From the IMG/VR virus record IMGVR_UViG_3300048769_000033, positions 1-40,408 of that record: a stretch of 40,408 nt of DNA; one strand, given 5' to 3'. This document shows, one piece after another, positions 3,572 to 37,493 of this stretch. The position numbers were made by a program, and so were the translations under genes. The notes beneath the pieces were generated by a model, which saw only the letters and a list, made by a program, of their open reading frames with translations, did no database searches and was not told the DNA's origin. The stretch comes from a virus (taxonomy: Duplodnaviria; Caudoviricetes). The first letter of the stretch is position 1, and every line of letters starts with the position of its first letter.

Positions 3572-4522
3572 ATGCGCAACCTCGTTCTTCGTAGCACCTT
3601 AGTCGCGCTCATCCTCACCGCCGTGTGCGCGGTACTGGGGTTTGCGCAAGTCGCCAATCAGCCGTTCACCGCTCCTGAGTACTACGCAACCAGCTTCCAA
3701 CTCTGGTCTATCAACGCCCAGAGCCCGAACACCTACATCTTCCAGGGTCGCAGCCTTTGCAGCTCAAACGGTCAGAATGTGGCCTTTTTCGACTTTGCAA
3801 CCAACGCTCCTGTCTGGATCGCGGACGCCAACACCGCGCAGTCTGAGGTCAAGACACCCTCGGCGATCATCCTCACTGCCGGCTCGTGCGGCGTTACCAT
3901 CGCGCCGAGTAATAACCACTACAACTACCAGTTGAGGTCGGGAACTGCCGGCTTGCAAGAGACGATCAACGCTGTCAAGGCGAGCGGCGGGATTCCGGCA
4001 ACCATCATCATCGATCGTAACTGGTGGTCGCTTGCCAACAACACGCCGGGAACTAGCGGCGCGGCTATCCTTGCGGCAGCCGTGGGCGGGCCTGGCGCGG
4101 CCATCGAGGACATCACGACCATTCCAGCCACCTACTATGTGTGGACCGGGACTGCCTATTCATCCAGCGCCGCATATTGGCAAAACACAGCACCTACCAT
4201 CACGGCGGGAGCGGCAGCAGGGTCTAGCCCGACAGTATCGAACGCGGCGAGTTCCACCGCACTAAGCGGTATTGCCAACGTAACAACTGGCACGGCAACA
4301 ACGACCGGCTCTTTGTTCGTCGAGACGTGGCCAACAAATGCTGGAACGGTTGGGAGCTTCCAAAATGCTGGAACATGCACAGTCGCATCGACTGGTGCCA
4401 ACTCGTTCACCACATTCACGTCGGCTACTAGCTTTACGGGAAGTCATCGAGTGCTAACGATAACAGTGACGGCCACTCCGGCAGTATCGACGGCTTACCA
4501 ATTCAGTTACAACTGCCAGTAG
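3572..4522 (+). CDS. Secreted appendage-like protein, paralogue 1 of the SGTxGLQ family
   Basis: AAGGAG RBS 3556-3561, ATG 3572; signal MRNLVLRSTLVALILTAVCAVLGFA-Q; SGTAGLQE at 3938-3961; T/S/A-rich beta C-terminus. Confidence 0.85.
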   Translation: MRNLVLRSTLVALILTAVCAVLGFAQVANQPFTAPEYYATSFQLWSINAQSPNTYIFQGRSLCSSNGQNVAFFDFATNAPVWIADANTAQSEVKTPSAIILTAGSCGVTIAPSNNHYNYQLRSGTAGLQETINAVKASGGIPATIIIDRNWWSLANNTPGTSGAAILAAAVGGPGAAIEDITTIPATYYVWTGTAYSSSAAYWQNTAPTITAGAAAGSSPTVSNAASSTALSGIANVTTGTATTTGSLFVETWPTNAGTVGSFQNAGTCTVASTGANSFTTFTSATSFTGSHRVLTITVTATPAVSTAYQFSYNCQ

Positions 4523-4539
4523 ACCATCAAGATTCAACC

Positions 4540-4574
4540 AGGGCGGCCGGCTTATGCGTCGGTCGCCCTCTTTT
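4540..4574 (+). terminator. Putative intrinsic terminator
   Basis: 12-bp stem AGGGCGGCCGGC/GTCGGTCGCCCT (two G-U pairs), 6-nt loop, then CTTTT. Confidence 0.6.
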
Positions 4575-4595
4575 ATGCAAAGGAGCATCGTCGCC

Positions 4596-6026
4596 ATGAA
4601 ATCGAGAATCATTCCCATCCTCGCCATTGCGTTTCTGATGTCCGTGGCGCTCGGAGCTCAGACTACCAGCTCCACTGCGAGCGTTACAAACCAAGCGAAC
4701 GGCCCGGCCGATGTAGCAGGGTTTCTCTATGCTGCCAACTTCGCGCACTGGACCGCATCTCCGACTGACATGGGTACACGGTGGACAAGCCCCGGCCAGT
4801 GCTATGGGACATCTGGCGGGCTAGTTTTCCCTCTGTTCTCGACCACAGCGCCAATCACGATCGTAGATGTTGGGGTTCCTGCGAACACAGAGACGGTTAC
4901 GCCGACCAATGCACTCTACACTAGCTCTGGATGCTCCGTTGCTCTCCCCGCGACCCATCCGCACAGCAACTACTATTTGAAAAGTGGTACAGTGGGGCTG
5001 CAAGAGGCCTTGAATTGGATTGGATCGGGATATGCGGTTGTGGAACTCACTGCCGATTGGACCGCTATGGGCGGAACTACCTCCATGCTCACGTCCTCCA
5101 GGGCTGGAGCGAATACGACCATCCTTGATTCGCGTACATCGAACGAGATTGCCTATTATGGAACTACCCCAACTCCCGCCCCGGTCATTGTTCCCTCATC
5201 GCTTCAGGTTGGATCAGGTACCCCTTTGCCTGGTGCGATTATCAACGCTACGCAATCAAACGTAGGAACCAGCACCCAGATCAACGTGCAGAATACATCG
5301 GTTGACAACGCGGCAAGTTCTGATTTAGTGGCAACCGCGGACAATGGCACAAATACAACTTTCTTCCTCGATTGTGGAATCAACAGCTCAACATACAATC
5401 AGGCCGCATACAATTCAGGCGGTGCCGACGACGGCTATTGCTACGCTACAAACAACTTCTTTCTTGGCGCGGCCGGATCAGGCAAGAGCGTTACAATCGG
5501 CGCTGGAGGAACGACTTCGGCGAACGTGGTAGCGACATTCGCATCCGCACTAATCACGTTTGCTCAACCGCTCACCCCATCCTTGGGAATCAATGGATTG
5601 ACAGCGGGCGTTGCCGCTGGCGCCGGCATTGATGGGCAGGTCATCTCCTCGCTAGTGCCTACTGGATCTGGAGTATCCATCGCCACATCAGGCACCACCG
5701 TCAATATGTCCAGCATCTCGCTAACCGCGGGAGACTGGGACGTAGAGGGTTCCGTAAACTTCGTGGCGGGCTCAACGACCATTGTCGGCGGCGCATTGCA
5801 TGAGGTTGGATTCAATACAACCTCTGCTACTCTGCCGGTGGACGGCTCCGAAGTTTATCTCAGTGCGCCAACACTGACCACGACAAGTGCAAACTTTGGA
5901 ACGGCTGTACCGCGCAAGGTTTACAACGTGTCCAGCACGACTGTCATTTACCTTGTGGCCAGCGGAACATTTACCGCTGGCACCGAGAAAGTTTACGGAA
6001 CCATCACAGCACGGCGCATTCGATAA
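4596..6026 (+). CDS. Secreted tail fibre-like protein, paralogue 2
   Basis: AAGGAG RBS, ATG 4596; signal MKSRIIPILAIAFLMSVALGA-Q; SGTVGLQE at 4983-5006; C-terminal SISLTAGDWDV...TITARRIR module of the kind seen in phage fibres. Confidence 0.85.
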   Translation: MKSRIIPILAIAFLMSVALGAQTTSSTASVTNQANGPADVAGFLYAANFAHWTASPTDMGTRWTSPGQCYGTSGGLVFPLFSTTAPITIVDVGVPANTETVTPTNALYTSSGCSVALPATHPHSNYYLKSGTVGLQEALNWIGSGYAVVELTADWTAMGGTTSMLTSSRAGANTTILDSRTSNEIAYYGTTPTPAPVIVPSSLQVGSGTPLPGAIINATQSNVGTSTQINVQNTSVDNAASSDLVATADNGTNTTFFLDCGINSSTYNQAAYNSGGADDGYCYATNNFFLGAAGSGKSVTIGAGGTTSANVVATFASALITFAQPLTPSLGINGLTAGVAAGAGIDGQVISSLVPTGSGVSIATSGTTVNMSSISLTAGDWDVEGSVNFVAGSTTIVGGALHEVGFNTTSATLPVDGSEVYLSAPTLTTTSANFGTAVPRKVYNVSSTTVIYLVASGTFTAGTEKVYGTITARRIR

Positions 6027-6046
6027 CTCTGGCGGGAAAAGATCAC

Positions 6047-8746
6047 ATGAAAAAACTTATCATCCTGATCTCGATCTTAGGCGCAGTCTCCTTGTGCTGC
6101 GCCCAAACTCCCGGAACTGTGACCACTGGGCCCGGCAATACCGCCGGCATCCTCTACGCATCCAGCTTCGGACAGTGGTCAGTCACCGCGGGTAATCAAG
6201 GACAGTTCTCCTGGTCGAGCCCATCATTCTGCACCGTGACCGCCGCCGGAATCCCGCTCTCTCCAGTCTTCGCTGTCGGTACTCCAGTTCTCATCAAAGA
6301 CCAGGTGACAGCCAACAGCGAGACTGTGACGCCAAGCGCGGTCAACGTTGGCGGAGCTGGTTGCTCGATCACTGTCAGCCCAGCTAATCATCACAACACA
6401 TTCGTGCTGTTATCTGGCACGGCAGGGCTTCAGGATGCCATCAATTACGCGCATGACCTTCCTTATGAAGTGATCTTGACGCCAGATTGGTCTCGGCTTG
6501 GCGGGATTACTAGCATGATCGCAACGGCTCGCGGCAACAGCAATGTGCAGATTTCCGACCAGCGGAGTGCCTGCATCATCGCTTACATTTGGTCTGGAAG
6601 CTCCTATGTTTCTCAGCCATCGTCATGTAGTGGCGGCGGCGGGGGTGTTGGTCCCGGCACGGCTGGGTACGTGCCTGTATTCACCGGAACAACCGCACTG
6701 GGAGACTCATTGGCAGACTATGGCGTGACAACGTCAGGATCGTTCACTTTTCCTGCCAACACAAACACGCCAAGCGTAAATCTGTTGCCTTTAGAACAAC
6801 TGCCAAACGGTATCGTTTCGCTAGGAATACCTCTGACATCGGTCAACCTGAGCGGGAGCGATGTGATCGCAATAGGAACAAGTGCAGAAAGTGGAGAACA
6901 GCCCGCTGCTGGCAATACTGGACAACGTGTCATCGCGTTAGGCATCGGATCAGCAACAAACAATCAAGGTAATGACGTTATTGCGCTTGGAAACGAAGCC
7001 GATTACCAGACCCCTGGTGGTCCTGCGACAGGTGAGATTGTTGCGTTAGGCATGTCCGCTTGCCATCTTGATACGGGTTCGAACGTTGTATGTATCGGAA
7101 ATCAAACCGGATTCCAGAATTCTGGCAGTTTGGTGGCAGCTATCGGCACTAATGCGGCTGAAAGAAATAGTGGAAATGTCGTCGCTGCGCTGGGAGAAAA
7201 TACGGCCCTCGTAAATTCAGGCAACATGGTGGTTGCTGTTGGAGACAACGCATCTGAATTTAACAGTGGAGATGCAGTAATCGCCATAGGCGACGGAATC
7301 CTAAATGATAACGCAGCGAGTCAGGTCATTGGAATAGGACAGAACGTTACGGGTGGAAATTCGGGAGACTCTCTTCAGCTTGGTATTGGCTGGAATATCG
7401 AAATGGCTCATGGGGGTAGCAACAATATAGCTATCGGTAACAATGCTGGGCCTGCTGGTGCTCCATATTCAGGCTCTATTGCTATCGGAGACACGGCGCG
7501 AAACACGGCGACTGGGCAAACGGTTATTGGAAACAGCAGAGCAACCGAGTTTCCAACCACTAATTTAATAATGTATGGACCTCAGCCTTCTAGCGGAGGC
7601 CCATACTGCTTGCAGATCGACAGCACTGGCAGCGTGACCTCAACAGGCGCGGCTTGCGGGTCGGGGGGCGGGGTTTCACAGATCATCGCTGGTACGAATG
7701 TGTCGATCTCTCCAGCAGGGGGGACAGGCGTTGTCACGGTGAATGCTTCGGGGGGAGGGGGTGGGTATCCCGGCTGTACCGCAGATGGATCAAACGGGAT
7801 CGTATGCACGGGACAGGTTCAAGGGAACCCCGTCAAATCGACCGCGAACAGCGTCGGCGTGAGCATCGAGAATATGTCGATTGGAACGGTATCGCAGCTT
7901 TCTTCCTTGACAACTTCCAATTCGATTTTGGCCGTTGGGTCAACAGTTTGGGTGTCGGATGGAGCGTATTGCGGAGACTTTACTGCGGGAAGTGGGAGCT
8001 ATGTCGAGAAGCTGAAATGTAACACCTTGACCAGTGGAAGCTGTTCGGCATGGTCTGTACTGTCGTGCTATCCGCCAAATACCGCGTCCTCTTCGATTCC
8101 GCAAAGCGTTTCCAATCTTGTCCTTTGGTATGCAGCCGATCACATGACTTTACTGAATGGGTCGAACGCGGTCCGCTGGATTGACAACGTTCTTGGAGAT
8201 ACCGCTTACGCTATAAACGCTGGCGCAATCTATCAAACAAGCCAAATCAACGGTCTTCCTGCTATACAGTTCTCTGGAACGACCGCTGGAAGATACACGA
8301 TCCCTTATCCAGTGATGCTAGCAAACTCGACAGTTTTTGTGGTTTTCAACCCATCCTCGTTTGGAAGACAGGATTTTATATCAGGCGGAAGCGGTGCTTA
8401 CGGATTATTTGTCAACACCAGCGGACAACTAAACCTTTTAAAATGCTACACCGCAGACCTTCCTGCTTCAACGACCACGTTAACAACAGGCACTTGGTAT
8501 CAGGCTAACGTAACCTACAACTCCAGCACATTTGCTTATTCCTATCGAGTAGCAAGAGCGGCGGCGGGAAGCGGAACAAGCAGTTATGCGATGACGTCAA
8601 ACACCAGTGGTTTGGGGTATGACGTGGCCGAATCAAACGCAGATTTTAACTCAAATCTAGCTGAGATTATCGTCTACAACCGAGTGCTGACTGGACCGGA
8701 AATCACCACGATTGAAAACTACTTGCTCGCCAAGTATGGGATTTAG
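6047..8746 (+). CDS. Secreted adhesin/fibre, paralogue 3, with YadA-head-like repeats and a C-terminal LamG/ConA-like domain
   Basis: Signal MKKLIILISILGAVSLCCA-Q; SGTAGLQD at 6413-6436; tandem NSGxxVxAxG repeats (~6850-7530); C-terminal LVLWYAAD...INGLPAIQF...AEIIVYNRVL...IENYLLAKYGI. Confidence 0.85.
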   Translation: MKKLIILISILGAVSLCCAQTPGTVTTGPGNTAGILYASSFGQWSVTAGNQGQFSWSSPSFCTVTAAGIPLSPVFAVGTPVLIKDQVTANSETVTPSAVNVGGAGCSITVSPANHHNTFVLLSGTAGLQDAINYAHDLPYEVILTPDWSRLGGITSMIATARGNSNVQISDQRSACIIAYIWSGSSYVSQPSSCSGGGGGVGPGTAGYVPVFTGTTALGDSLADYGVTTSGSFTFPANTNTPSVNLLPLEQLPNGIVSLGIPLTSVNLSGSDVIAIGTSAESGEQPAAGNTGQRVIALGIGSATNNQGNDVIALGNEADYQTPGGPATGEIVALGMSACHLDTGSNVVCIGNQTGFQNSGSLVAAIGTNAAERNSGNVVAALGENTALVNSGNMVVAVGDNASEFNSGDAVIAIGDGILNDNAASQVIGIGQNVTGGNSGDSLQLGIGWNIEMAHGGSNNIAIGNNAGPAGAPYSGSIAIGDTARNTATGQTVIGNSRATEFPTTNLIMYGPQPSSGGPYCLQIDSTGSVTSTGAACGSGGGVSQIIAGTNVSISPAGGTGVVTVNASGGGGGYPGCTADGSNGIVCTGQVQGNPVKSTANSVGVSIENMSIGTVSQLSSLTTSNSILAVGSTVWVSDGAYCGDFTAGSGSYVEKLKCNTLTSGSCSAWSVLSCYPPNTASSSIPQSVSNLVLWYAADHMTLLNGSNAVRWIDNVLGDTAYAINAGAIYQTSQINGLPAIQFSGTTAGRYTIPYPVMLANSTVFVVFNPSSFGRQDFISGGSGAYGLFVNTSGQLNLLKCYTADLPASTTTLTTGTWYQANVTYNSSTFAYSYRVARAAAGSGTSSYAMTSNTSGLGYDVAESNADFNSNLAEIIVYNRVLTGPEITTIENYLLAKYGI

Positions 8747-8755
8747 GTGAGAGAT

Positions 8756-9618
8756 ATGAAGAAAATTTCGATCATCTTTTTGCTGTCTCTTGCCGCTCCA
8801 CTGTTTGCTCAGTTGGACGCGACAAAGTGGTACGCCACTGACAATGTAATCACAGGGGCTGCGCCATCCTGCGAGTTTGCTTCAAATGTCACGGTGAACG
8901 GTGGTGACTTGAATATCGCTTTCACTGACGGCACTTACACGTGTGCGGGAGGTTCTTCGAGCTACGGCACAGGACTGATTGTTAGTGCTCCGTTTTCATT
9001 TCAATATGGAAAGGCGGTGGCACGCATCCAGTTTGGGGCCAACAATCATTGGCTATATTCCGCATTCTGGCTCGAGGGTGGTCTGGCAGGGTCGAGTGGC
9101 TATCCTCCAACATGCATTGCGCACTGCGAGCCGGAGGATACCCAGTGATGGATGCTTGTACTGGGTCCGCACAGACCACCACAGAGATTGACATTGCGGA
9201 ATGCGTGGGGACGAGTTCTTTAAAAAACAATTTGATTCTATGGCAGAACGGGAGTGTTATCAATGCATGGGTTATGTACACATCTCTTAACGGCAACGCT
9301 TCCGACAGTTTTCATATCTATGAATTGGATTGGTACCCAACTCTCCTGGTATTCAAAATGGATGGACAAATAACGAATACCATCGCGCAGTCTGTACAGG
9401 TTCCCATGTTTCTCCTATTTGATGATGAGGCTAGAACTCTTCCCACGGGACTCCCTACGGCTCTTACCGTGGACTGGGTGCGGGTGTGCAGCGATCCGAA
9501 TGCAGCCTGCAACCCCGGCGATTCAACGATGATTTTTGATGATGAGTTCAATGTTGGCGTTGTGCCTATTTCAACCAGCAATCAGGGCGAGAAAAAGCAA
9601 GGGCAAAAAGCGCAGTAG
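8756..9618 (+). pseudogene. Secreted GH16 glycoside hydrolase split by a frameshift near 9120 (pseudogene or sequencing error)
   Basis: First frame: signal MKKISIIFLLSLAAPLFA-Q, LDATKW, FQYGKAVARIQ, SAFWL; second frame: catalytic EIDIAE (9184-9201), FHIYELDW, VDWVRV. Confidence 0.8.
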
Positions 9619-9686: not shown

Positions 9687-10229
9687 ATGACTGAACGGCG
9701 GGCGGATCAGAGAGCGACTTATGATGCCATGCTTGAATTAGCCAGGGAAAGCCAAGAACTCGCCAAAAAAACACACGATGAAATCGTGGAACTGAAAGGA
9801 GACTTGGTCACAAAAGTGGAGACTCTTTGGTCTGACATGTACAACGGCGGAAAAGAGGGTGTCAAGACGCAATTGACGCAACTAGTGACCAAATTGGATC
9901 AGCGTGATCTAAATCAGGAAAAGAATGACAAAGAGCGCGAAAAGAGACAGGCCCGCCGCGACACGCGCACAAACTTCATTCTTGTGATTATCGGCCTGAT
10001 TATTGCGCTGATTGGAGCGCTTCATGAGCTGCCTCCAGCGGTCGATTCGCTAAAAAAGTTTTTGAACGGAGGAATCCATTACCCACACTTATTTCACGGA
10101 AATAACGATGGTTCAAGGTATACTGGTCGCATGAACAGACAGCCCGAATCTTCTGTTCTACCTGACAGTGAAGTTCGCAACGCCTTAACAGTCAACTCCC
10201 AGGGGGAGCAAACTCAAGACATTTTCTAA
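9687..10229 (+). CDS. Coiled-coil plus single-TM membrane protein (possible holin/XhlA-like)
   Basis: AGGAG RBS; TM FILVIIGLIIALIGAL preceded by basic residues; lies in the lysis region. Confidence 0.7.
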   Translation: MTERRADQRATYDAMLELARESQELAKKTHDEIVELKGDLVTKVETLWSDMYNGGKEGVKTQLTQLVTKLDQRDLNQEKNDKEREKRQARRDTRTNFILVIIGLIIALIGALHELPPAVDSLKKFLNGGIHYPHLFHGNNDGSRYTGRMNRQPESSVLPDSEVRNALTVNSQGEQTQDIF

Positions 10230-10437: not shown

Positions 10438-10569
10438 ATGAAAATCATTCACTGGCTCCGCAAATTGTTTGTGTGCCGGGAATGCGGCGGTAGCCGGGGA
10501 TTTAACACAAGCGCTGGATGGGTGCCATGTTGGCGATGTATCCGGAGCGGAAAGGCGAAAGCGCGATGA
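10438..10569 (+). CDS. 43-aa Zn-finger-like peptide (MKIIHWLRKLFVCRECGGSRGFNTSAGWVPCWRCIRSGKAKAR)
   Basis: Not in the ORF track (under 60 aa); GGAGG RBS at 10425-10429, two CxxC pairs, ATGA overlap with the next gene. Confidence 0.6.
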   Translation: MKIIHWLRKLFVCRECGGSRGFNTSAGWVPCWRCIRSGKAKAR

Positions 10570-11396
10570 ATGTTTTCAAAGTCTTCACCATAATTGGCGA
10601 CTATAACAAACTGACCTCAATCAACAAGGAGAAGGGAAGCATCATGAACAAACTACCACAGTATCTTACACTCGTAGTCAGTCTGACCGGAACGCTCGGC
10701 GTTCCAGCCCTGGCACAAAACTGGCTGGCGCAACCTGCTCATCAAGTGATTTATACCGGTCTTGTGGCAGCCGCGCTGATTCTCCACGCCATTTTCCCGT
10801 CGATCTTTGGCGCGTCCAGTGATGCGGCCAAGACGTCGGCTGGACTGAATAAAGCAGGAATGATCCTGCTGATTCTCGGTACAGGATTGTTCCTGATGCC
10901 TATGAATGTCTACGCGCAGACGACTACCACAACGACCAGCGCGAGCAATGGTTTCGTGGCAGACTCATCGGTTGTCGCATTGCATTACGATGGGGTTTGG
11001 AGTGCGGGAACTCATGTGACTGAATCATACGACTTCTACGATTTTGGGACGAAGAAAGCGAATCACGTCTATATTGTCGGCCATGAGCTTCTAGCTCCTA
11101 CACCTGGCTTCAGCGTCTACGCCGGAGGTGTGGCTATCGAACCAAACTTGGCTACGCTTTTCAAAAAGTTCAACGTTCCAGCGGATACCTTCTCTGCGCA
11201 GTTTGATGCAGCTTTAGGGAACGGGGTGCCGTCATCTGGCGGTTCGCATATTTCTGCGCTGGCCGGTGGACTGATCAAATACAGAGCAACCAGTCAGCTA
11301 TCGTGGAACGCATTGGAAGTCCAGTGGGTACGGTACGGATCGAACAACGGCGCTGCAATCTCAACTGGGTTGAGCTTCATCTTTGGCGGTAAGTAA
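10566..11396 (+). CDS. Holin-like two-TM domain fused through an internal signal peptide to a putative outer-membrane beta-barrel
   Basis: TMs YLTLVVSLTGTLGVPAL and VIYTGLVAAALILHAIF; internal KAGMILLILGTGLFLMPMNVYA-Q; amphipathic strands ending AISTGLSFIF-GGK; second possible start at ATG 10644. Confidence 0.7.
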   Translation: MNVFKVFTIIGDYNKLTSINKEKGSIMNKLPQYLTLVVSLTGTLGVPALAQNWLAQPAHQVIYTGLVAAALILHAIFPSIFGASSDAAKTSAGLNKAGMILLILGTGLFLMPMNVYAQTTTTTTSASNGFVADSSVVALHYDGVWSAGTHVTESYDFYDFGTKKANHVYIVGHELLAPTPGFSVYAGGVAIEPNLATLFKKFNVPADTFSAQFDAALGNGVPSSGGSHISALAGGLIKYRATSQLSWNALEVQWVRYGSNNGAAISTGLSFIFGGK

Positions 11397-11401
11397 GAAA
11401 A

Positions 11402-11545
11402 TTTGTGCGGGAAACCAACACGAGTGTATGCGCTCAAATCATCGAGAGAGGCGGCTATGAGGCCCGCACAAACCAGCTTCCCGCCTCCAGAGCGGGAAGA
11501 ACCAAAACAACTCGGGCCGACTTGGCAAAGATCGGCCCTTTCTTT
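11402..11545 (+). promoter_or_regulatory. Structured intergenic RNA ending in a terminator-like hairpin upstream of the lysin gene
   Basis: Stems 11402-11411/11463-11472 (10 bp) and 11477-11484/11492-11499 (8 bp), then GGGCCGA-CTT-GGCA-AAG-A-TCGGCCC followed by TTTCTTT. Confidence 0.6.
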
Positions 11546-11557
11546 GCGAGGTAAGAC

Positions 11558-11923
11558 ATGTGGACATATTCGCAATCGACGGGAAAACTGCTCCACGATG
11601 GCGCACTAGTCGGAATCGGCTACAGCGGACACGACAGCAGCCTTAATTGCCCCGACGCCGAAGCACTGTACGGCCTGGGGCCGATTCCGAGGGGTGAGTG
11701 GACCATTGGGTCCTTCTTTGACGATCCGGGCGGCAAGGGTCCGATCGTGGCTCATCTAACACCGGTCGCTGGTACAGAGACGTTTGGACGCTCTGGATTC
11801 ATGATCCATGGCGACAACGGATCCGCAAACCATTCAGCATCTCACGGTTGCATCATCCTCTCTCGCCCTTACCGCATCGCCATTAGAGACAGCGGAGACA
11901 AGTCGATCATCGTCACAGAGTAG
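11558..11923 (+). CDS. Tlde1/DUF2778-family L,D-transpeptidase-fold peptidoglycan enzyme (putative endolysin)
   Basis: MWTYSQSTG start, GYSG, GPIPRGEW, GRSGFMIHGD...ASHGCI (catalytic His...SxGC); GAGG RBS. Confidence 0.88.
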   Translation: MWTYSQSTGKLLHDGALVGIGYSGHDSSLNCPDAEALYGLGPIPRGEWTIGSFFDDPGGKGPIVAHLTPVAGTETFGRSGFMIHGDNGSANHSASHGCIILSRPYRIAIRDSGDKSIIVTE

Positions 11924-11933
11924 AGGTCATTCC

Positions 11934-12134
11934 ATGGGGAAACACGTAACATGGACGCCTGAAAATCTTCGCCTGCATCTGACAGCTTTGATCGATCGCG
12001 ACAATCAGGCTCATCGGGAAGCAGTTCGAATCGCTCTTGAGGCTGTGAAGGATCGCCAGAACTTGATGATCACGCTTTGCTTTCTCGGCGCCGCGCTGGT
12101 CTCACTGGCTGTCAACCTATTTGCAAGGCACTGA
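11934..12134 (+). CDS. Small protein with C-terminal TM helix
   Basis: GAGG RBS, ATG 11934; LMITLCFLGAALVSLAVNLF. Confidence 0.65.
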   Translation: MGKHVTWTPENLRLHLTALIDRDNQAHREAVRIALEAVKDRQNLMITLCFLGAALVSLAVNLFARH

Positions 12135-20057: not shown

Positions 20058-20837
20058 TTACTCTATCCCCTTCCAGTTCAACCCTTGGCACACGGCACAG
20101 ATCGTCGTCGCTTTCACATCAAAAAGCGCGGCGATCTTGCCATGTGCAATACCCCAACTTCTCAACAGTTTGATGGTGGGTATCTTATCTTCGGAGAGAG
20201 CAACGAATCGCCGTCTCCGCTGATTTTCTATCGCAGTCACAGCTTCCAGATGATCGGGATTTACGCAGGAAGGAACAAAGCAAAGATGGTCAACTTGGTA
20301 ATCGGCTGGAATCTCACCCTTGGCCTGGGTGTAAAAATGACGGTGCGCAGCATATCCGACGCCATCGACCGTTATCTTGCCGTAGCCATGTTCATCTTTG
20401 TAAAGCTGCCAAATCCAGCATGGCGTCTTGTATCCCCGGTCCTCAATAACATACTGGGCTCCCGACTTTCGCGTGTGGTGATTATGGATGAATCTCATTG
20501 GGTGCCCGGAGAGCGCTCCTGTCCGCCGATTGCTGAGCGTTGCAATTGGAGCTGGTTGGCCGCAGCCGCACTGGCAGAGGCCGGACGGGTTCGGCGGCGG
20601 GATGGGCGGCCCGCAATGGTGCCCATAGAGAAACCGTACGTGTTGGTCCTTGACCCATCCAATACCTCGCGAGGTGTAGGCGGCAACGGGAGTCGTCCGG
20701 CCACATCCGCACTGACACAATCCCGATGGGTTAGGCGGTTCCATGTTTTTCTCGCGCTTCGCCTTCCAATGGTGGCCAATAAGGTAGTTGGACTTGCATG
20801 GATGGCCGCACCCACATTTACAAAGTGTGTTGGACAT
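20058..20837 (-). CDS. Free-standing HNH homing endonuclease with three CxCGCG...HH repeats and a C-terminal HTH
   Basis: CWIW...GYG...AHR...DHLC..PSCVNPDHLEAVT..EN core; the only credible minus-strand gene. Confidence 0.9.
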   Translation of the reverse strand: MSNTLCKCGCGHPCKSNYLIGHHWKAKREKNMEPPNPSGLCQCGCGRTTPVAAYTSRGIGWVKDQHVRFLYGHHCGPPIPPPNPSGLCQCGCGQPAPIATLSNRRTGALSGHPMRFIHNHHTRKSGAQYVIEDRGYKTPCWIWQLYKDEHGYGKITVDGVGYAAHRHFYTQAKGEIPADYQVDHLCFVPSCVNPDHLEAVTAIENQRRRRFVALSEDKIPTIKLLRSWGIAHGKIAALFDVKATTICAVCQGLNWKGIE

Positions 20838-20880
20838 GAATTTACCCTCTCAGAATCAGTTCTACTCTAACACATAACCG

Positions 20881-20910
20881 GCGGGCTGCTTCGGTGGCCC
20901 GCTTTAGTTT
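20881..20910 (+). terminator. Intrinsic terminator, probably the capsid-gene terminator displaced by the HNH insertion
   Basis: GCGGGCTGC-TTCG-GTGGCCCGC, C(UUCG)G loop, then TTTAGTTT. Confidence 0.7.
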
Positions 20911-20919
20911 GGAGAAAGC

Positions 20920-21060
20920 ATGAGCATCAAGTTCTGGATTGCACGAAAGTCTGACGGCGTGCTAGTCGGCTGCCGTACGTGGAGGCGCTCGTTCAAGGAG
21001 TGGTCTCTGGTTTTTTGGATCAACCATCATTTCTGCTGCGTTGGAATGGGTCTCCGGTAA
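20920..21060 (+). CDS. 46-aa hypothetical peptide
   Basis: GGAG RBS at 20911; TAATG overlap with the next gene; not in the ORF track. Confidence 0.4.
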   Translation: MSIKFWIARKSDGVLVGCRTWRRSFKEWSLVFWINHHFCCVGMGLR

Positions 21061-28434: not shown

Positions 28435-28871
28435 AGCCAATCATCCTTCGCCCGGCGATGCCCGCCGACCTGCCGTTTATTGAACGATTCCACGCCGAGC
28501 AGAACGAGCGTGATGAGACGAGCTATCCGCTTCCTGTCCTCTTCGATAAAGACGGCAAACTGACCGACCGAGTTCCGGTGGTCTTGGTGGGATGCGTCGA
28601 GGGAACGGACGAGCCGGTGCAGGCGCTCTGGGTTGAACGACGCGCTGAGTTGATGTTTGCCGGGTGCGACAACCCCAAGGCTACGGCGTTCGCACAGCGT
28701 GACGCCGATGCGCTGGCCGCGGTTCTTTCATGGGCAGGATACACCGGGATGCATTGCGACGTGCCTATCGCATTAGCGGAGGCGGTTGGAAAGCCTCTTA
28801 CGCGAGCTGGATTTAGCCGGAACGATGACCGTCTGGCGCACTTCTACAAGGATTTGAGGGGAAAACAATGA
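28431..28871 (+). CDS. GNAT-fold-like protein preceding the ejection proteins
   Basis: ILRPAMPADLPFI start and L.RAGF end are GNAT-like; position matches small podoviral genes ahead of internal virion proteins. Confidence 0.6.
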   Translation: MKPIILRPAMPADLPFIERFHAEQNERDETSYPLPVLFDKDGKLTDRVPVVLVGCVEGTDEPVQALWVERRAELMFAGCDNPKATAFAQRDADALAAVLSWAGYTGMHCDVPIALAEAVGKPLTRAGFSRNDDRLAHFYKDLRGKQ

Positions 28872-29884
28872 GCCGCAGCCAGCAAAGTGAAGTTTTCAAT
28901 ACAGAACAGGAGAACTCTGCTACAAACGAAACCGCAGCGCAAAAGTCCGATGCCGCAACCCAGAGCGATATTTCTAACCAGCAATCGCAACTTGCCAAGT
29001 TTGCCGCCGACAACCCTTATGTGCAGGGTGGCCAGATGGAAACTACGACAAATAGGCAACTATCTGGGACGGCAGACTCAACGGCTGCGGCAGCGAAGGC
29101 AGGAAACCAACAACTTGCCCAGCGAACCGGCGCGAATGCTTCAACAGGCGTCGCGGCGGGAGAGGCTGAGCAGGAAGCAGCACAGCGTACCCTTGGAACC
29201 CAAGAGGCAAGTGCTACTCAAAGCAGACTTGCCGCTGGATCGACTTATGGCCAGGATGTGTTGAGCGATCAAAATCAGATCACCGCAGCGCAACAGAATC
29301 TTGCCTCCCAGGAGTCGAATGCCGCTCAAGGAGAGTCCAGCACGGAAGAGAGTGCCGCCCAGCAGTCGAGCTTTATGGATGAATTAGGGAAAGGACTAAT
29401 CAGCGGAGCGGATAGCGTCGGAACGGCTTACTGCCCGGCGCGCGGGTCGATGATTCTCATGGCCGATGGAACCCAGCAGGCGATTGAGACTTTGACCATT
29501 GGAAGCGTCATTGAGGGCATCGATGGAGAGCCCCAAGTCGTCGAGGAGATTCAATCGGCTCGTTCGATTGTCCTAAAAACCGAGATCAGCGGTGGATTCG
29601 TCGTCCGTACATCCCCGGTACATGCTTGGGCTCTTCCCAAGGGTGGGTTTACCGTTGCCACTCGCGCGAACGGAAAGGTCATTCTCACGAAGAACGGAGC
29701 AGCAACCGTGCTTCGCGTCACTCCGGACGGCATGGACACGGTCTATAACGTCATCACTGACGGTTCGCATACCTACCGGGCAAATGGGGCTTGGTCTCTC
29801 GGAGTCGGCGAGGCCGAGCGAGCGGTAAGCATGGACCAGTGGGAAGAGATCGGCGAACGGATGATGCAGAAAGTAGGGGCGTAA
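28868..29884 (+). CDS. Ejection-type (Q/A/S-rich) protein with a C-terminal Hint domain
   Basis: Hint block A CPARGSMILMADG from 29432, block B TSPVH, block F VYNVITDGSHTYRANG; no terminal HN. Confidence 0.85.
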   Translation: MSRSQQSEVFNTEQENSATNETAAQKSDAATQSDISNQQSQLAKFAADNPYVQGGQMETTTNRQLSGTADSTAAAAKAGNQQLAQRTGANASTGVAAGEAEQEAAQRTLGTQEASATQSRLAAGSTYGQDVLSDQNQITAAQQNLASQESNAAQGESSTEESAAQQSSFMDELGKGLISGADSVGTAYCPARGSMILMADGTQQAIETLTIGSVIEGIDGEPQVVEEIQSARSIVLKTEISGGFVVRTSPVHAWALPKGGFTVATRANGKVILTKNGAATVLRVTPDGMDTVYNVITDGSHTYRANGAWSLGVGEAERAVSMDQWEEIGERMMQKVGA

Positions 29885-31529: not shown

Positions 31530-34500
31530 ATGGCGACGAGTCCGGTCCAGTTCGACGAAACGACAGCAGTTCCCATTGGCGGCGGGCAACAGTGGGATGA
31601 GAGCACCGCTGTGCCACTCCCCAAGGCAGCCGCGCAGCCAGCGAAGCCTACTCCAACCCTGGGAGGTCAACTGCCTAATGGGACACTCTCTGCCGCATCT
31701 GAACCATCCCTATTTGACCGTGCCCGCGATTCAGTAGGCAATAGCATTGTCGGCAAAGCGCTGGGCATGGAGTCCACGCTTGTTCCCGGCTCGCCAGAGT
31801 ACCGCCAGACCAGAGAGGCAATGCCGCAGTTGCCGGGATGGGCGAATGAGCCACTGCTTAAGAAAGAGCAGGATTGGGAATCTAGTTGGAACCCCATCCT
31901 GAAACAGCAGCGGGATCGCGAGGCGCAAGTCAGTCAGCAGTTCGATACTGCGCACCCAATCATTGGCGGCGTCGCGCGGGGAGTATCAGACACCATCCAG
32001 GGCATGACGAGCCCGGCCAATCTAGCGATGCTTGCCGCTGCTCCCGAGTCGAAGATCATCTCTGGATTCTTCGCTACCCAGGCCGCCAAGGGTGCATACG
32101 ACAACGCGGAGCAGGCATATCAGGCATGGCGCATAGGGCTGAACGGAGAGGCCGCCAAGTACCTCACGGAGTCTGGACTTAGCGCGGTTATCGCCGGACT
32201 AGCCGGAAGGTCGGCGCTCAAAGGCGCGTTCCCGGTAGACACCGGCCGCCCGTCTATCACCGAACCGAAAACCAGTGGCGGAGAATCGGAGCGGGCGCGG
32301 CTTGGCGCTGGTGCGCGGCCCCCCGTAGAGTTCCCGCCCGATACGCCCGTCTTCCCTCTCCAGCCAACCGGAGCACCACGCCTACAGGCATCCACCCCGG
32401 GAGAAGCTCCGCCGAATCCACAGAACTCTCCGGGTCCGGTCAATCCATCAACCGCCATTGAGCGCACGAAGCCCCCGACACAGTTTGCGCCAAGGCCTGA
32501 GATTCCCGCCGACAAAGGTGTGATTGTCGATGAGCAGGGTAACGCGCTCCCGGTGCGTCCCGGCCTACCTGCTCCGCGCGACACGGCAAACCGTGCCAAG
32601 CCAATCATCCCCAAAGTTGTGCCGCCCCCCGCGCCGGTCCCGCCCGTTCCGCCGCAACTTGGCAGCGCCGCCATCATGGCCACGCCGACCAATATCCAGC
32701 CAGCGCCAGAATCGCCCCAGGCCGCGCCCGCTCCGATTCAAGTCACTACCCCAGCCGCTCCGGTCCAGCAGCCGCAGGCACCCGGCACAGCCGAGGCGCG
32801 TCCGGTGGTCCAAGCGAGCACCGACCCCGCACAGTTGCGCCAATCAGCCCAGCAGCAGCAGCCAGCCCTTGAACAGATGGCCGGGCAGGTGGCCGCCGCA
32901 GTTCCTGGTGCAGAAGTAGTGGGACCCCGGGTCAAGACTGCCGAGTCAATCAAGAACAAGGACGATCGCGGCAAGGCCCCCGAGACCAACATCGACAATC
33001 TGGCAGTGCGCGTGGTCGCTTCATCCCCCGACGATGTGCCGGCAATCCAGCAAGTAATCGAGAGACAGCTCCCCGTCGCGTCCAAAGACACGATCGACAG
33101 CAATGGGCTGAACATTCCCCAGTACGCGATCCAGACCGGCAAGCCTGGAGAACCAAACCAGGTCTCAGAGTTGCAGGTCATCCCCGGCCCGGCCACGGCC
33201 AAGGCGATGAAAGAGACCGATCCGCTCTATGCTAAGCAGAAAGAGGCATTGGCGGAGGCGGCATCCGAGAAGCCGGGAAGCTGGCAGCAGAAGGCATCGC
33301 AGCGGGTCGCCGACGATCTCGGAGCACAGCTCAGCGGCATCCTCGACAAAGCCAAGGCGCAGGACGCTAAGGCGACTCCGAAGAAGCCGGACACTCCCCA
33401 GGTCGCGGCCATGTCGGGAACGGCACCGATGGGAGCGCAGCCCGCATCCGGTCCCAAGCCTCTTGTCAAGGGAACCCTCGTAACGCTGAAGGACGGGACC
33501 AAAGGGACCATCAAGGGCGGCAACGCCAACGAGCCGAACGGCGGACGCTGGATAGTCACAACCCACAAGGGGTCTGTCCTGGCCAACGGGAAGGATTTAA
33601 AGACGGAAGCTCCAGCCGAAGCGGTTACCCCGCCAGTCCAGCAGGGCCAGCCCGCGCCCGGCGCACCACGGCCAGTCGGTAAGCCGCTCATGAAGCGTAT
33701 CGAGCAGATCAAGGCCCTCGTCGCCAAAGGTCAGAAGGTGGTCATCTTCTCAAGCGAGGCCGACAACCCAACGTTGCATGAGGCATTGCATCAGGTCGGT
33801 CTGGGCGGCCTGCCAGTGACAAACATCAAGGGACCGGACTTCAGCGCACTACTCGACAATGAGGTCAACGTCCCAACCAACGCCGATGAGCCGATGGAGA
33901 TTCCAGAGATTGCGGCGGGCAAGGCGATCTATGTGGACTTCGACGGGACGCTATTCACCCAGCCGGGCGGAGTGGAGAAGCAGGAAGCCAAGGGCGGAGC
34001 AGGAGAACCGATTCGCGCCTATCACGGTACGGCGGCTCAGTTTGAAGGGGCTCCGCGCACCGATGGTCTTGGAGCACACTTCGCTCCAGAGCGCAAGTTG
34101 GCAGAGGATTTCTCTAAGGGGTCATCCGGCCGAGAGCCGGGCAGAGTCATCGAAGCTGAACTCAACATCAAGAATCCACTAAGAATCAAGGATCATGGAT
34201 TCCCGCACAGCGATGCAGAGGCTACCGTAGAGGACTTCATCAAGCAGGGGGTCTTGCCGAAAGAGTTTAGCGACGGTCTTGTCGGTCGATTGGTAAAGCG
34301 CTCCGAGGAACTTCAAAAAGGAATCGACCAGACTCTTCCCCGAGCAGAGTACAAAAAACAGCACAACGATGCTTACCAAACGGCTAATAATGAGGAACTT
34401 GTAAAGGTCAAGAAGTATTTGCAATCCAAGGGATACGACGGTCTGGTCTACGACAACACTCTTGAGGGTCACGGAGATTCATACGTCGCTTTCGACCAGA

Positions 34501-37493
34501 GGCAGATCAACGTAAAAGGAGCACCAGCCAATGAACAGCGGAACAGCCCAGAGCAGCCTGCCAATTCAGTTGCAAACGGTGGACAAGAGGAGGCCCAAGG
34601 TGCCATTCAAAAGCCAGCAGCGCAAGTGGATGAACGCCAACCGGGACAAGGTGGGCGCGAAGACGGTGGACGAGTTCAACCAGTCCAGCAAGGGGTTGAA
34701 CCTGCCCGAGAAAGCGCCGTCAAGCCGGGCGGGAAAGCGGATAGCCAAAAAGAAGTAGAACCAAAATTCAAGCACGGCAATACTCAAGCCGACATCCCCC
34801 CCGGCAGCGACGCAGGGAAGGCACTCGCCCGTATGCGTAAATCCATTCTCCCGGAAGACCTCGCGGGCGACGGGCTGGTCAACGATTCGCATATTACTGT
34901 GCGCTATGGCATCGATGCGGCGAAAGAGAACCTTGCAAACATGGAAAAGATCGCCGCCGAAGCCAAGCAAAAGAAGTCAGACCTTGGCAGCACGTTCTAC
35001 TCCGGCTTTGGCGACCCTGCACTATTCGCCCGCATCTTCCCCAACCCCGCCGAGCGCATAGCCGATTGGCTGTCCGACGCTCCCACATCCGGCGACACTC
35101 AGCGCGCCATGATGCGCGAGACGCGCGGAGAGATGGACCGCAAGGTAGCCATCGCTATCCATAAACTCAAGGACGCCTCGAAAGACTGGCGTACCCGCAG
35201 CCGCGACGACTCCATGAAGTTCTGGAATGCAGTTGAGGCCGGAAAGGTAGACTCGCTCCCCGCCAAGGACCGCGCCCTGGCTAATCTCTTCAAGGCTGGA
35301 TTCGACAACATGCGCGAGCAACTCCAGGCGCTCAAGCCGGAAGTCTTGCAGGACTACATCGAGAACTACTTCCCGCACGTCTGGGAGCGTCCATCGCAGG
35401 TATCGGCCACCATCAAAGCCATGCTCAACGGCAAGAAGCCTTTCGCCGGTAAAGCATCATTCCTGAAACAGCGCACCATCCCGACCATGCAGGATGGCAT
35501 AGACCTTGGATTCAAGCCGATAAGCTGGAACCCTGTCGATTCATTTCTGACCAAGTACGCCGAGATGGCGCAGTTCCTGATGGGCCACCAAACCTTGCAG
35601 GTGATGAAGAATGCCGGAACCGCGCGGCAAGTGCGCGTAGGCAACCAGCCGCCCGAGGGATGGACCCAACTTGACGACCGCATCGGGACTGTCCACAGCT
35701 ACGACGATGACGGACACCTGTACATTCGCGGCCACTACTACGCCCCCGCCGACGCCGCCCGCATCTTCAACAACTTCGTCTCGCGGGGCATGGCTGGACG
35801 GTCCACGATCTACGACACTTTGAACTGGGCCAACCAAAACCTCAACGCTCTCCAGCTTGGCATCTCCGCATTCCACGCATCGACCACGAGCATCAACGCC
35901 GTAACATCTGACGTTGCCCTGGGCATCCAGCAACTTGCCGAAGGGAAACCTCTGCGCGCCGGCATCTCACTGGCCACAGGGGCAGCGGTTCCCGTCTCGA
36001 TAGCCCGCACACTCATCAACGGCACTCGGCTGATGAAGGAGTATCTGGAGCCCGGCAGCTACGCCAAGATGCGGAAAGAGGCGGAGGCGCTGACAAGTGC
36101 TGGTGGCCGCATCCGTCAGAACACCATCGAGATCAAACCCCTGCAAAAGATCATCAACGCCTGGCGCAATGGCGCGGTGCTCGAAGGTCTGACGCCGATC
36201 CCAGGTGCCATCCTCCGTGCCACGGTCGCGCCGGTCATGGAGTTCTACGTGCCGCGAATAAAGCTCGGGGCCTTCTACGCCATGGCGCATAATATCCTGG
36301 ACAGCGCGCAGCGGGGCGACTGGAGCGATGGACTGGTGCGCTCCCGGATGCAGGAGGCGTGGGACTCTATCGACAACCGATTCGGACAAGTCGTCTACGA
36401 TAATCTCTTCTGGCATAAGGGCGTGCGCGATGCGCTCAACCTGGCCACCCGCTCAGTGGGCTGGAACTACGGCAGCTACCGGGAACTCGGCGGAGCGGTT
36501 GCCGATGTTGCCCGACAGGCAGGACGCGCGGCCAGCGGACAGGTCCCCCGCGTCACTCCCCGGCTGGCTTTCGGTATCGCTCTGCCGCTAGTTAGCGCGC
36601 TCTTTGGAGGCATCCTAACCTACCTCTGGACCGGCAAGCGCCCCGACGAGTGGAAGGATTACTTCTACCCCAAGACTGCGAACGGTGAGCGGCACTCTAT
36701 TCCTGGCTACATGAAGGACGTATTCTCATTCCAGCACGCCCCCGGAAAGACCGTCCTCAATAAGATGGCCCCGATATGGGAGGCAACTTCTGAGGCAATC
36801 GAGAACCGCGACTTTTACGGCACCGAGATCCGCCACAAGGATAATCCCCTGATGGCGCAGCTTGGCCAGTTCTCCCGCTGGGCCGGCAGCCAGACCGTCC
36901 CGTTTGCAATCTCCGGTGCCGAGAAACTACTCCAGCAGCGCGGCTCGGGTCCATCACTGGCCGAGATGCTGGCCGAAGCAAAGAAGCACCCCGGCGACGT
37001 GGCTCTAGCTCAACTTGGATTCCAGCCAGCACCGGCATTCATTCAGAACAGCCCCGCTCTCAACATGGCCCGCGAATACAACCGCGACAATCGCCCCCCG
37101 GGCACCAAGACCCAGGAGCAATCAGACCACTACAAGGCTCTCGATGCCGTAGTCGAGATGTACCGCTCTGGCGATGTGGACGATAAGCAGATTGATCGCT
37201 ACGTTGAAAAAGGCGTCCTCTCCGACAAGGATGTAGACAAAGCCGCCCGCGAATCGGATCAGCAGCCCATCGCCCGCGCTGTCCAGAACCTCTCCATTGA
37301 GCAGATGCTGAACGTATGGGAGAAGGCATCCCCAGATGAACGCGAGGCTATGGAACCTATCTTGGCTCGTCATGAGCGGGACATCGACAAAGAGACTGAC
37401 GATGACCGGCGCGAACAACTGCATGCGGCATTCGACAAGGCTATGAACGAGACAGAGCAAGGACCAGCAACGGCGGGAGGGCCGATCATCTAA
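31530..37493 (+). CDS. Large polyvalent ejection protein (RelA/SpoT-like, HAD-like, ART-PolyVal-like, partial 2H, LPD38-like C-terminus)
   Basis: RVKTAESIKNK/DNLAVRVV/ELQV; VDFDGTL; YHGT...LNIKNPL...GYDGLVY...VAFDQRQI; HITVRYG; EAIENRDFYGTEI. Confidence 0.8.
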   Translation: MATSPVQFDETTAVPIGGGQQWDESTAVPLPKAAAQPAKPTPTLGGQLPNGTLSAASEPSLFDRARDSVGNSIVGKALGMESTLVPGSPEYRQTREAMPQLPGWANEPLLKKEQDWESSWNPILKQQRDREAQVSQQFDTAHPIIGGVARGVSDTIQGMTSPANLAMLAAAPESKIISGFFATQAAKGAYDNAEQAYQAWRIGLNGEAAKYLTESGLSAVIAGLAGRSALKGAFPVDTGRPSITEPKTSGGESERARLGAGARPPVEFPPDTPVFPLQPTGAPRLQASTPGEAPPNPQNSPGPVNPSTAIERTKPPTQFAPRPEIPADKGVIVDEQGNALPVRPGLPAPRDTANRAKPIIPKVVPPPAPVPPVPPQLGSAAIMATPTNIQPAPESPQAAPAPIQVTTPAAPVQQPQAPGTAEARPVVQASTDPAQLRQSAQQQQPALEQMAGQVAAAVPGAEVVGPRVKTAESIKNKDDRGKAPETNIDNLAVRVVASSPDDVPAIQQVIERQLPVASKDTIDSNGLNIPQYAIQTGKPGEPNQVSELQVIPGPATAKAMKETDPLYAKQKEALAEAASEKPGSWQQKASQRVADDLGAQLSGILDKAKAQDAKATPKKPDTPQVAAMSGTAPMGAQPASGPKPLVKGTLVTLKDGTKGTIKGGNANEPNGGRWIVTTHKGSVLANGKDLKTEAPAEAVTPPVQQGQPAPGAPRPVGKPLMKRIEQIKALVAKGQKVVIFSSEADNPTLHEALHQVGLGGLPVTNIKGPDFSALLDNEVNVPTNADEPMEIPEIAAGKAIYVDFDGTLFTQPGGVEKQEAKGGAGEPIRAYHGTAAQFEGAPRTDGLGAHFAPERKLAEDFSKGSSGREPGRVIEAELNIKNPLRIKDHGFPHSDAEATVEDFIKQGVLPKEFSDGLVGRLVKRSEELQKGIDQTLPRAEYKKQHNDAYQTANNEELVKVKKYLQSKGYDGLVYDNTLEGHGDSYVAFDQRQINVKGAPANEQRNSPEQPANSVANGGQEEAQGAIQKPAAQVDERQPGQGGREDGGRVQPVQQGVEPARESAVKPGGKADSQKEVEPKFKHGNTQADIPPGSDAGKALARMRKSILPEDLAGDGLVNDSHITVRYGIDAAKENLANMEKIAAEAKQKKSDLGSTFYSGFGDPALFARIFPNPAERIADWLSDAPTSGDTQRAMMRETRGEMDRKVAIAIHKLKDASKDWRTRSRDDSMKFWNAVEAGKVDSLPAKDRALANLFKAGFDNMREQLQALKPEVLQDYIENYFPHVWERPSQVSATIKAMLNGKKPFAGKASFLKQRTIPTMQDGIDLGFKPISWNPVDSFLTKYAEMAQFLMGHQTLQVMKNAGTARQVRVGNQPPEGWTQLDDRIGTVHSYDDDGHLYIRGHYYAPADAARIFNNFVSRGMAGRSTIYDTLNWANQNLNALQLGISAFHASTTSINAVTSDVALGIQQLAEGKPLRAGISLATGAAVPVSIARTLINGTRLMKEYLEPGSYAKMRKEAEALTSAGGRIRQNTIEIKPLQKIINAWRNGAVLEGLTPIPGAILRATVAPVMEFYVPRIKLGAFYAMAHNILDSAQRGDWSDGLVRSRMQEAWDSIDNRFGQVVYDNLFWHKGVRDALNLATRSVGWNYGSYRELGGAVADVARQAGRAASGQVPRVTPRLAFGIALPLVSALFGGILTYLWTGKRPDEWKDYFYPKTANGERHSIPGYMKDVFSFQHAPGKTVLNKMAPIWEATSEAIENRDFYGTEIRHKDNPLMAQLGQFSRWAGSQTVPFAISGAEKLLQQRGSGPSLAEMLAEAKKHPGDVALAQLGFQPAPAFIQNSPALNMAREYNRDNRPPGTKTQEQSDHYKALDAVVEMYRSGDVDDKQIDRYVEKGVLSDKDVDKAARESDQQPIARAVQNLSIEQMLNVWEKASPDEREAMEPILARHERDIDKETDDDRREQLHAAFDKAMNETEQGPATAGGPII
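34600..34758 (+). CDS. Nested 52-aa basic protein (MPFKSQQRKWMNAN...LPEK) in the +1 frame inside the polyvalent gene
   Basis: GAGGAGG RBS at 34587-34593, GTG 34600; alternative start ATG 34531 with AAGGAG; resembles small MPFKS-type phage proteins. Confidence 0.6.
   Translation: MPFKSQQRKWMNANRDKVGAKTVDEFNQSSKGLNLPEKAPSSRAGKRIAKKK

Follow-up and report, generated by a model that had tools for sequence, protein, structure and literature searches.

What does a phage gene do that encodes, in one frame, a pair of membrane helices, an export signal and a predicted outer-membrane barrel, and does its product take part in lysis? The window analysed here is a whole virus record of 40,408 bases, about 70% complete, with the terminase subunits near its right end. 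The gene follows four genes with A|Q export signals, a gene for a coiled-coil protein with one transmembrane helix (TM) and two small ORFs, and is itself followed by a structured intergenic stretch, a Tlde1/DUF2778 gene and a small TM gene. The fusion gene and its parts were located as follows:

10438..10569, + strand: ORF of 43 aa with CxxC/CxxC, its stop overlapping the first start of the fusion ORF
10566..11396, + strand: fusion ORF of 276 aa (250 aa from the second start), a single open frame
10566..10643, + strand: basic N-terminal extension of the long form, 26 aa, helical in the model and kept in window-type homologues
10626..10646, + strand: internal Shine-Dalgarno sequence and second ATG (dual start)
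10662..10796, + strand: holin-like hairpin, TM1 at 10662-10715 and TM2 at 10743-10796, predicted N-in/C-in
10851..10916, + strand: internal signal of the signal-peptidase-I type, with the cut predicted after VYA (10916/10917)
10917..11396, + strand: mature domain, namely Q, a Thr-rich linker and a predicted 8-stranded outer-membrane barrel with short outer loops

The ORF at 10566-11396 has a three-part layout of a two-helix holin-like module, an internal signal peptide and a predicted barrel domain. The sequence-only reading had described two TM segments, a linker and K-AGMILLILGTGLFLMPMN-VYA|Q, and this anatomy was recovered, with a polar linker after the two helices and VYAQ at 10908-10919. 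Both in-frame starts that it had named are also present. The first ATG (10566) overlaps the TGA of the upstream 43-aa ORF as ATGA, and the second (10644) is preceded by AAGGAG (10626-10631) and AAGGGA (10632-10637). A longer frame from 10518 was rejected as a start, as it has no ribosome-binding site and homologues begin near 10566. The protein contains no cysteine. Fifty full-length or barrel homologues in the initial search, 148 matches in the profile search and an identical copy in another assembly (L016) mark the ORF as more than a chance frame. Pfam and PHROG scans of the ORF gave no match, tblastn against cultured phages gave none either, and the PDB sequence search returned only OmpA (E 0.63). 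No sigma-70 promoter match was found near the gene. Contigs from RNA libraries span the fusion gene, the fibre genes and 17.8-20.2 kb; as such contigs neither show transcription nor rank genes, they carry no weight for or against expression in a lysogen.

Near-identical DNA occurs in peat and permafrost metagenome runs, among them three DNA runs that carry no flag as a possible source. One homologue comes from a Terracidiphilus MAG, and this protein, weak Atlas rows and the peat runs together make Acidobacteriota the likely host. Scans of GTDB genomes with A2 and P0023 gave no confirmed case. Elsewhere in the window, 31530-37493 encodes a polyvalent protein of 1,987 aa that has an ART-PolyVal domain, a Hint-domain match lies in a 338-aa ORF at 28868-29884, and parts of 20534-21059 are skipped by the RNA contigs of two runs.

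The hydrophobic helices lie at about aa 33-50 and 60-77, and the full-length model places helices at 3-21, 26-44, 57-76 and 96-109, followed by a disordered cut region and eight strands. Across 36 window-type sequences, K+R averaged 5.1 before TM1, 0.2 in the loop and 1.4 in the linker, counts that fit a predicted topology with the N-terminus in, the loop out, the linker in and the signal out. Like a holin, the module is a small protein with one to four TMs adjoining a likely endolysin gene, and the dual start known from holins is present at the level of sequence. A strict 5-mer of the Shine-Dalgarno sequence was found 4-13 bases 5' of the internal ATG in 16 of 17 loci, which are mutually related and do not amount to 17 independent tests, against 3 of 188 internal ATGs in the long ORFs of the window. 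The internal Shine-Dalgarno sequence is encoded via differing codons in different module types. Against the holin part stands that no holin family model in Pfam or PHROG convincingly matches any fused module; one Atlas row, with Holin_SPP1 on 14% of members and a score of 0.86, is a lead only. When short standalone forms were looked for, the window-type module turned up in none. Directly upstream of a standalone barrel (L010) lies a small gene of its own, with 60% identity to the fused module of P0169. Overall, the hairpin probably has holin activity, and by analogy with dual-start holins the long form might act as an antiholin-like regulator, a suggestion we make tentatively.

Whether the chain is cut after VYA bears on every reading of the gene. 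Alanine at -1 was found in 70 of 76 fused and 42 of 49 standalone exported rows, and glutamine at +1 in 73 of 76 and 46 of 49, respectively. From the cut site to strand 1, the median distance was 12 aa in fused proteins (maximum 30, no coiled coil) and 11 aa in standalone ones. A Q at +1 is the hallmark of signal-peptidase-I substrates in Bacteroidetes (PMC5837995, a paper with no mention of Acidobacteria). Since A|Q is kept alike in fused and standalone forms and the spacing is only about 12 residues, the product is likely to be a polyprotein that is cut, very probably at VYA|Q, and unlikely to be an uncleaved spanin bridge. This supports the proposal that signal peptidase splits the chain, yielding a holin-like protein and an outer-membrane protein.

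The same A-Q pattern had been claimed for the fibres, and it was indeed found on the four fibre/lectin-like genes upstream (3572-9618), all of which carry A|Q export signals and one of which matches a tail-fibre PHROG. Such signals also occur on genes in G002, G003, G004, G005, G007, G008 and G009. A GH16-like gene at 8756-9618 is split by a frameshift; an RNA contig has an extra base near 9120, and a one-base gap near 9120 yields a single frame of 287 aa.

Fusion is common and at the same time labile. Among 191 classifiable barrel homologues (window copies and one 2,519-aa match left out), 99 were fused to varied membrane modules, 80 stood alone and 12 were fragments or unclear, with a few assignments doubtful, such as P0051, a truncated fused form. 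All six standalone genes checked on DNA have an in-frame stop at most 29 codons upstream. Two separate genes in homologues had been named as a refutation of the fused design; this arrangement does occur in some relatives, where it supports the polyprotein and does not refute the fusion. The fused modules fell into 23 BLAST clusters, some of them remotely related, so that the number of independent origins is below 23. A quick tree was built from 120 barrels after removal of rows that scored less than 60 bits, rows whose ends were incomplete and seven doubtful ones. On it, the fused or standalone status changes 28 times, compared with 32.9 after shuffling (4 of 200 shuffles were as low). The window's barrel groups there with barrels bearing another module.

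Exchange of the barrel takes place at the cut site itself. Identity between L003 and L034 is 82-92 per 100 bases as far as the A|Q codons, falls to 33-40 within the mature domain and returns to 91-96 past the stop, and a breakpoint at A|Q was also found in L011/L032, in L001/L038 and, for standalone barrels, in the pair L072/L041. The same modules also carry a second passenger family, which was called a barrel from its sequence pattern and which a profile comparison shows to be unrelated to the first (probability 2.4%). Scans with the distant barrels P0144 and P0085 yielded no loci. Exchange exactly at A|Q shows that functional modules meet at the cut site. A processed polyprotein gains from this and an uncleaved bridge loses, as the spanins described to date require a lipoprotein to anchor them and a long domain in the periplasm (PMC6139136, excerpt).

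The fold of the passenger was approached by modelling, and two of its segments are needed for what follows:

11142..11189, + strand: conserved connection of 16 aa that links strand 4 to strand 5 (P-D/N-L..L..K-T-N, with a short helix), presumably periplasmic
11361..11384, + strand: match to the BAM beta-signal, STGLSFIF (S266-F273)

The mature part of 159 aa was modelled from 128 sequences with eight strands and a pLDDT of 92.8, in keeping with the barrel of about eight strands that had been anticipated. In the structural search, NspA was retrieved with Z 15.9 (rmsd 2.3, 130 aligned), OmpW with 15.2 and PagL with 14.9. A wide search gave Z 14-16 for NspA, OmpW, PagL, OmpA, OprF and a Legionella porin, with soluble barrels reaching about 11 or less, and Foldseek ranked NspA, Ail, OmpA and OmpX at the top. 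According to the model, the passenger is an outer-membrane-type barrel, and its location in the outer membrane via BAM is predicted. Other phages hold similar barrels. The window protein matches neither Ail/Lom nor OMP_b-brl Pfam families, and among 128 members OMP_b-brl and Opacity each matched one weakly (E ~0.03-0.04).

The sequence-only reading had about 160 aa of strands ending in GLSFIF and took the last aromatic strand for a terminal BAM beta-signal. The strands stood, but the protein ends in GLSFIFGGK and the last aromatic is not terminal; S266-F273 nevertheless fits the consensus of polar-x-G-x-x-aromatic/hydrophobic-x-aromatic/hydrophobic (PMC10945584, excerpt), as do 91 of 128 aligned homologue rows. 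Only GGK follows the barrel here. A C-terminal tail of more than 6 aa was found in 29 of 128 homologues, ranging from 13 to 59 aa and mostly cationic; disruptin-like tails of this kind occur, for example, in P0082, P0087 and L072:2995-3624. No histidine is conserved at 60% or more in the 128 rows and the only such serine sits in the beta-signal; a PagL/PagP-type lipid A enzyme was rejected for want of a conserved catalytic His/Ser. Small outer-membrane barrels of this type have both termini in the periplasm. With both termini assumed periplasmic when siding the loops, the median length of the outer connections is 2, 4, 5 and 2 aa in turn, though long strands may still protrude outward, and we infer that the conserved 16-aa connection faces the periplasm.

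The genes around the fusion ORF include the following:

9687..10229, + strand: coiled-coil protein with a single TM (XhlA-like layout), a likely accessory lysis protein with no family match
11397..11545, + strand: structured intergenic RNA with three hairpins, the last with a U-rich tail (terminator-like), z -3.4
11558..11923, + strand: Tlde1/DUF2778 protein of the L,D-peptidase fold, the likely endolysin (PF10908, E 9e-10)
11934..12134, + strand: 66-aa protein with a C-terminal TM (XhlA-like layout), judged from its sequence

DUF2778 proteins cleave peptidoglycan (bioRxiv 10.1101/2020.02.18.954545, excerpt), and relatives carry other wall hydrolases in the slot of this gene. The intergenic hairpins may keep expression of the endolysin below that of the fusion gene. 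One counterpart of the coiled-coil protein weakly matches a haemolysin PHROG, and a near-identical gene to that at 11934..12134 comes after an M15 endolysin in L002. In 29 loci (28 from L001-L049, after near-duplicates, short pieces and the record itself were dropped, plus L072), a wall hydrolase of at least six families lies within two genes of the barrel in 20, namely 17 of the 23 loci with a fused barrel and 3 of the 6 with a standalone one, as counted from 68 of 144 neighbouring ORFs chosen by eye for scanning. Pfam identified these hydrolases in 16 loci (Tlde1, M15, lysozyme, Hydrolase_2, glucosaminidase); PHROG matches, strong in L005 and weak in L030 and L043, extended the count, and the neighbour in L004 is 51% identical to a Hydrolase_2 protein. 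Loci outside the count are L001 and L020, which are incomplete, L031, whose hydrolase-like gene is unassigned, and L036, with Tlde1 about 4 kb off. No hydrolase was found near the barrel in L008 and L015, nor near the standalone barrels of L041, L044 and L072, which lie amid replication or HU genes.

That no lipobox spanin is evident in the window was borne out on the coding strand of this roughly 70% complete record by a home-made pattern. The pattern scan also gave no small lipoprotein that was convincing for the window, G002 or G005, the last two being complete genomes, but did give one near the cassette in G007. A small cysteine-rich lipoprotein gene lies downstream of the fused barrel at L040:5074-5304. 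No i-spanin-like gene was found in the window by a scan that recovered four of four positive controls. Such genes occur one or two genes after the barrel at L015:6451-7116, L026:4483-5235, L030:2056-2769 and L043:2034-2747. Their products have an N-terminal TM, about 190 helical aa and amphipathic C-ends, and form two unrelated families with no lipoprotein partner seen.

As a whole, the locus is best explained, somewhat short of an even chance, by a precursor that is cleaved into a holin and a barrel, the latter acting in the outer-membrane step of lysis. The cut at VYA|Q would be made by host signal peptidase I, leaving the holin-like hairpin in the inner membrane and freeing the barrel, which BAM would insert into the outer membrane. 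There it would take the place of a lipoprotein spanin. The barrel would build up simultaneously with the holin and be harmless until the wall is cut, after which it would weaken or fuse the outer membrane from its periplasmic face via the conserved amphipathic connection; in some relatives the cationic tail may add to this. A literature search on the toxicity of tethered barrels found nothing on point. The lysis role of the barrel is the tentative part of this explanation and falls slightly on the doubtful side. Against it stand the lipoprotein gene downstream in L040, the i-spanin-like genes in L015, L026, L030 and L043, which could do the outer-membrane job without a barrel, and the barrel itself, which has eight strands with neither an obvious lytic pore nor a conserved catalytic His/Ser and lacks a cationic tail in the window.

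The strongest rival keeps the cleaved polyprotein and makes the barrel a Lom-like moron, that is, a variable protein of the outer membrane that would exclude superinfecting phages or mask receptors, driven by the late promoter and repeatedly fused to the upstream holin. Phage lambda Lom is a small 8-stranded barrel of the Ail/OmpX fold, as is predicted here, and allele swapping of a surface protein is also typical of exclusion and arms-race genes. The two unrelated barrels are swapped at A|Q in lysis and non-lysis loci alike, three of the six DNA-checked standalone copies (L041, L044, L072) lie outside lysis clusters, which also counts against a lysis role, and the near-random spread of fused and standalone status over the barrel tree fits as well. 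However, the outer loops are very short, the conserved part would be periplasmic, and the barrel stays beside hydrolases of at least six families in 20 of 29 loci. Large phages such as T4 scatter their lysis genes, and the copies outside clusters are therefore weak evidence. We consider this rival unlikely, though well ahead of the remaining two.

It is improbable that the barrel anchors the upstream fibre/lectin-like proteins at the outer membrane or helps in their assembly, or that it is the 'o' half of a new two-part spanin with a TM-helical partner. The A|Q signals shared with the four upstream genes and with genes in the seven genomes named above would suit an anchor, and the i-spanin-like genes after the barrel in 4 of 29 loci would suit a partner; yet no TM-helical partner of this kind is encoded in the window, the barrel goes with holin modules and hydrolases and not with any one fibre, and binding is purely putative. 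Least probable is an uncleaved or late-cleaved chain by which inner and outer membrane are tethered and, after wall cutting, fused, a bridge that the sequence-only reading had offered and that a single chain with anchors for both membranes and the lack of another spanin in the window would favour, but which fares poorly against the conserved signal-peptidase motif, the short linker with no coiled coil and the 80 homologues that have an ordinary signal peptide and no inner-membrane module.

Preference for the cleaved precursor with a lytic barrel has consequences beyond this window. About 15% of phages have no recognisable spanin (bioRxiv 10.1101/515445, excerpt), and the fusion gene is a testable outer-membrane candidate. 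Fused and split alleles, and two unrelated barrels exchanged at one codon, provide natural controls. Should the barrel prove to be an exclusion factor, a polyprotein that signal peptidase divides to serve both membranes would still be unusual in bacteria and their viruses, as would a phage cassette swapped precisely at its cleavage site, and current family libraries missed the design. In titles and abstracts, subscription journals and supplements aside, no description of a holin, internal signal and barrel in one design was found.

Parts of the fusion protein resemble known systems. With the small 8-stranded barrels NspA, OmpX/Ail, OmpW, PagL and the OmpA N-domain it shares the predicted fold and beta-signal, and its standalone homologues carry an export signal as NspA/OmpX/OmpW-type barrels do. 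It differs from these in an identity of about 10%, the lack of a Pfam or PHROG family, the very short outer loops, the conserved inner connection and the fusion of half of the members to holin-like modules. Lambda S105/S107 and phage 21 S68/S71 are dual-start holin/antiholin genes, which likewise combine a small multi-TM protein with two starts, a basic N-terminal extension and an endolysin neighbour; here, the extension measures 26 aa, the third helix serves as a cleavable signal with a passenger, and no holin family matches. The Bradyrhizobium cytochrome b/c1 (fbcH) fusion product is processed at an internal signal; a paper search turned up no text describing this step. Its gene also joins a polytopic inner-membrane protein to an exported domain (for the fusion, PMC4986455, excerpt), but belongs to a respiratory complex and its passenger is no outer-membrane barrel.

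Like the lambda Rz/Rz1 and T1 gp11 spanins, the fusion gene lies in a lysis cluster beside the endolysin and supplies parts for both membranes. Unlike them, its product has no lipobox or cysteine, an integral barrel as anchor, no periplasm-spanning domain and a cleavable signal that separates its parts, in an orientation opposite to that of gp11 (PMC6139136, excerpt). A unimolecular spanin of the gp11 type, with a lipoprotein signal at its N-terminus and a TM at its C-terminus, was rejected, as there is no Cys and the TMs are N-terminal. The parts of a two-component spanin, a type II inner-membrane protein with coiled coils in the periplasm and an outer-membrane lipoprotein, were not found in the roughly 70% complete window. 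Disruptin gp28 of phiKT is likewise a candidate outer-membrane disruptor of a spanin-less phage (bioRxiv 10.1101/515445, excerpt), and 29 of 128 homologues resemble it in having a tail, mostly a cationic one. It is a 56-aa cationic peptide, compared with a barrel here that is tailless in the window copy, and a disruptin in the sense of a short cationic amphipathic peptide was rejected, as the window barrel is followed by GGK alone. Acidobacteria phages may have a third outer-membrane route, neither spanin nor disruptin, in the form of a small interchangeable barrel freed by signal peptidase from the holin itself; if so, one gene would both time and execute lysis at both membranes.
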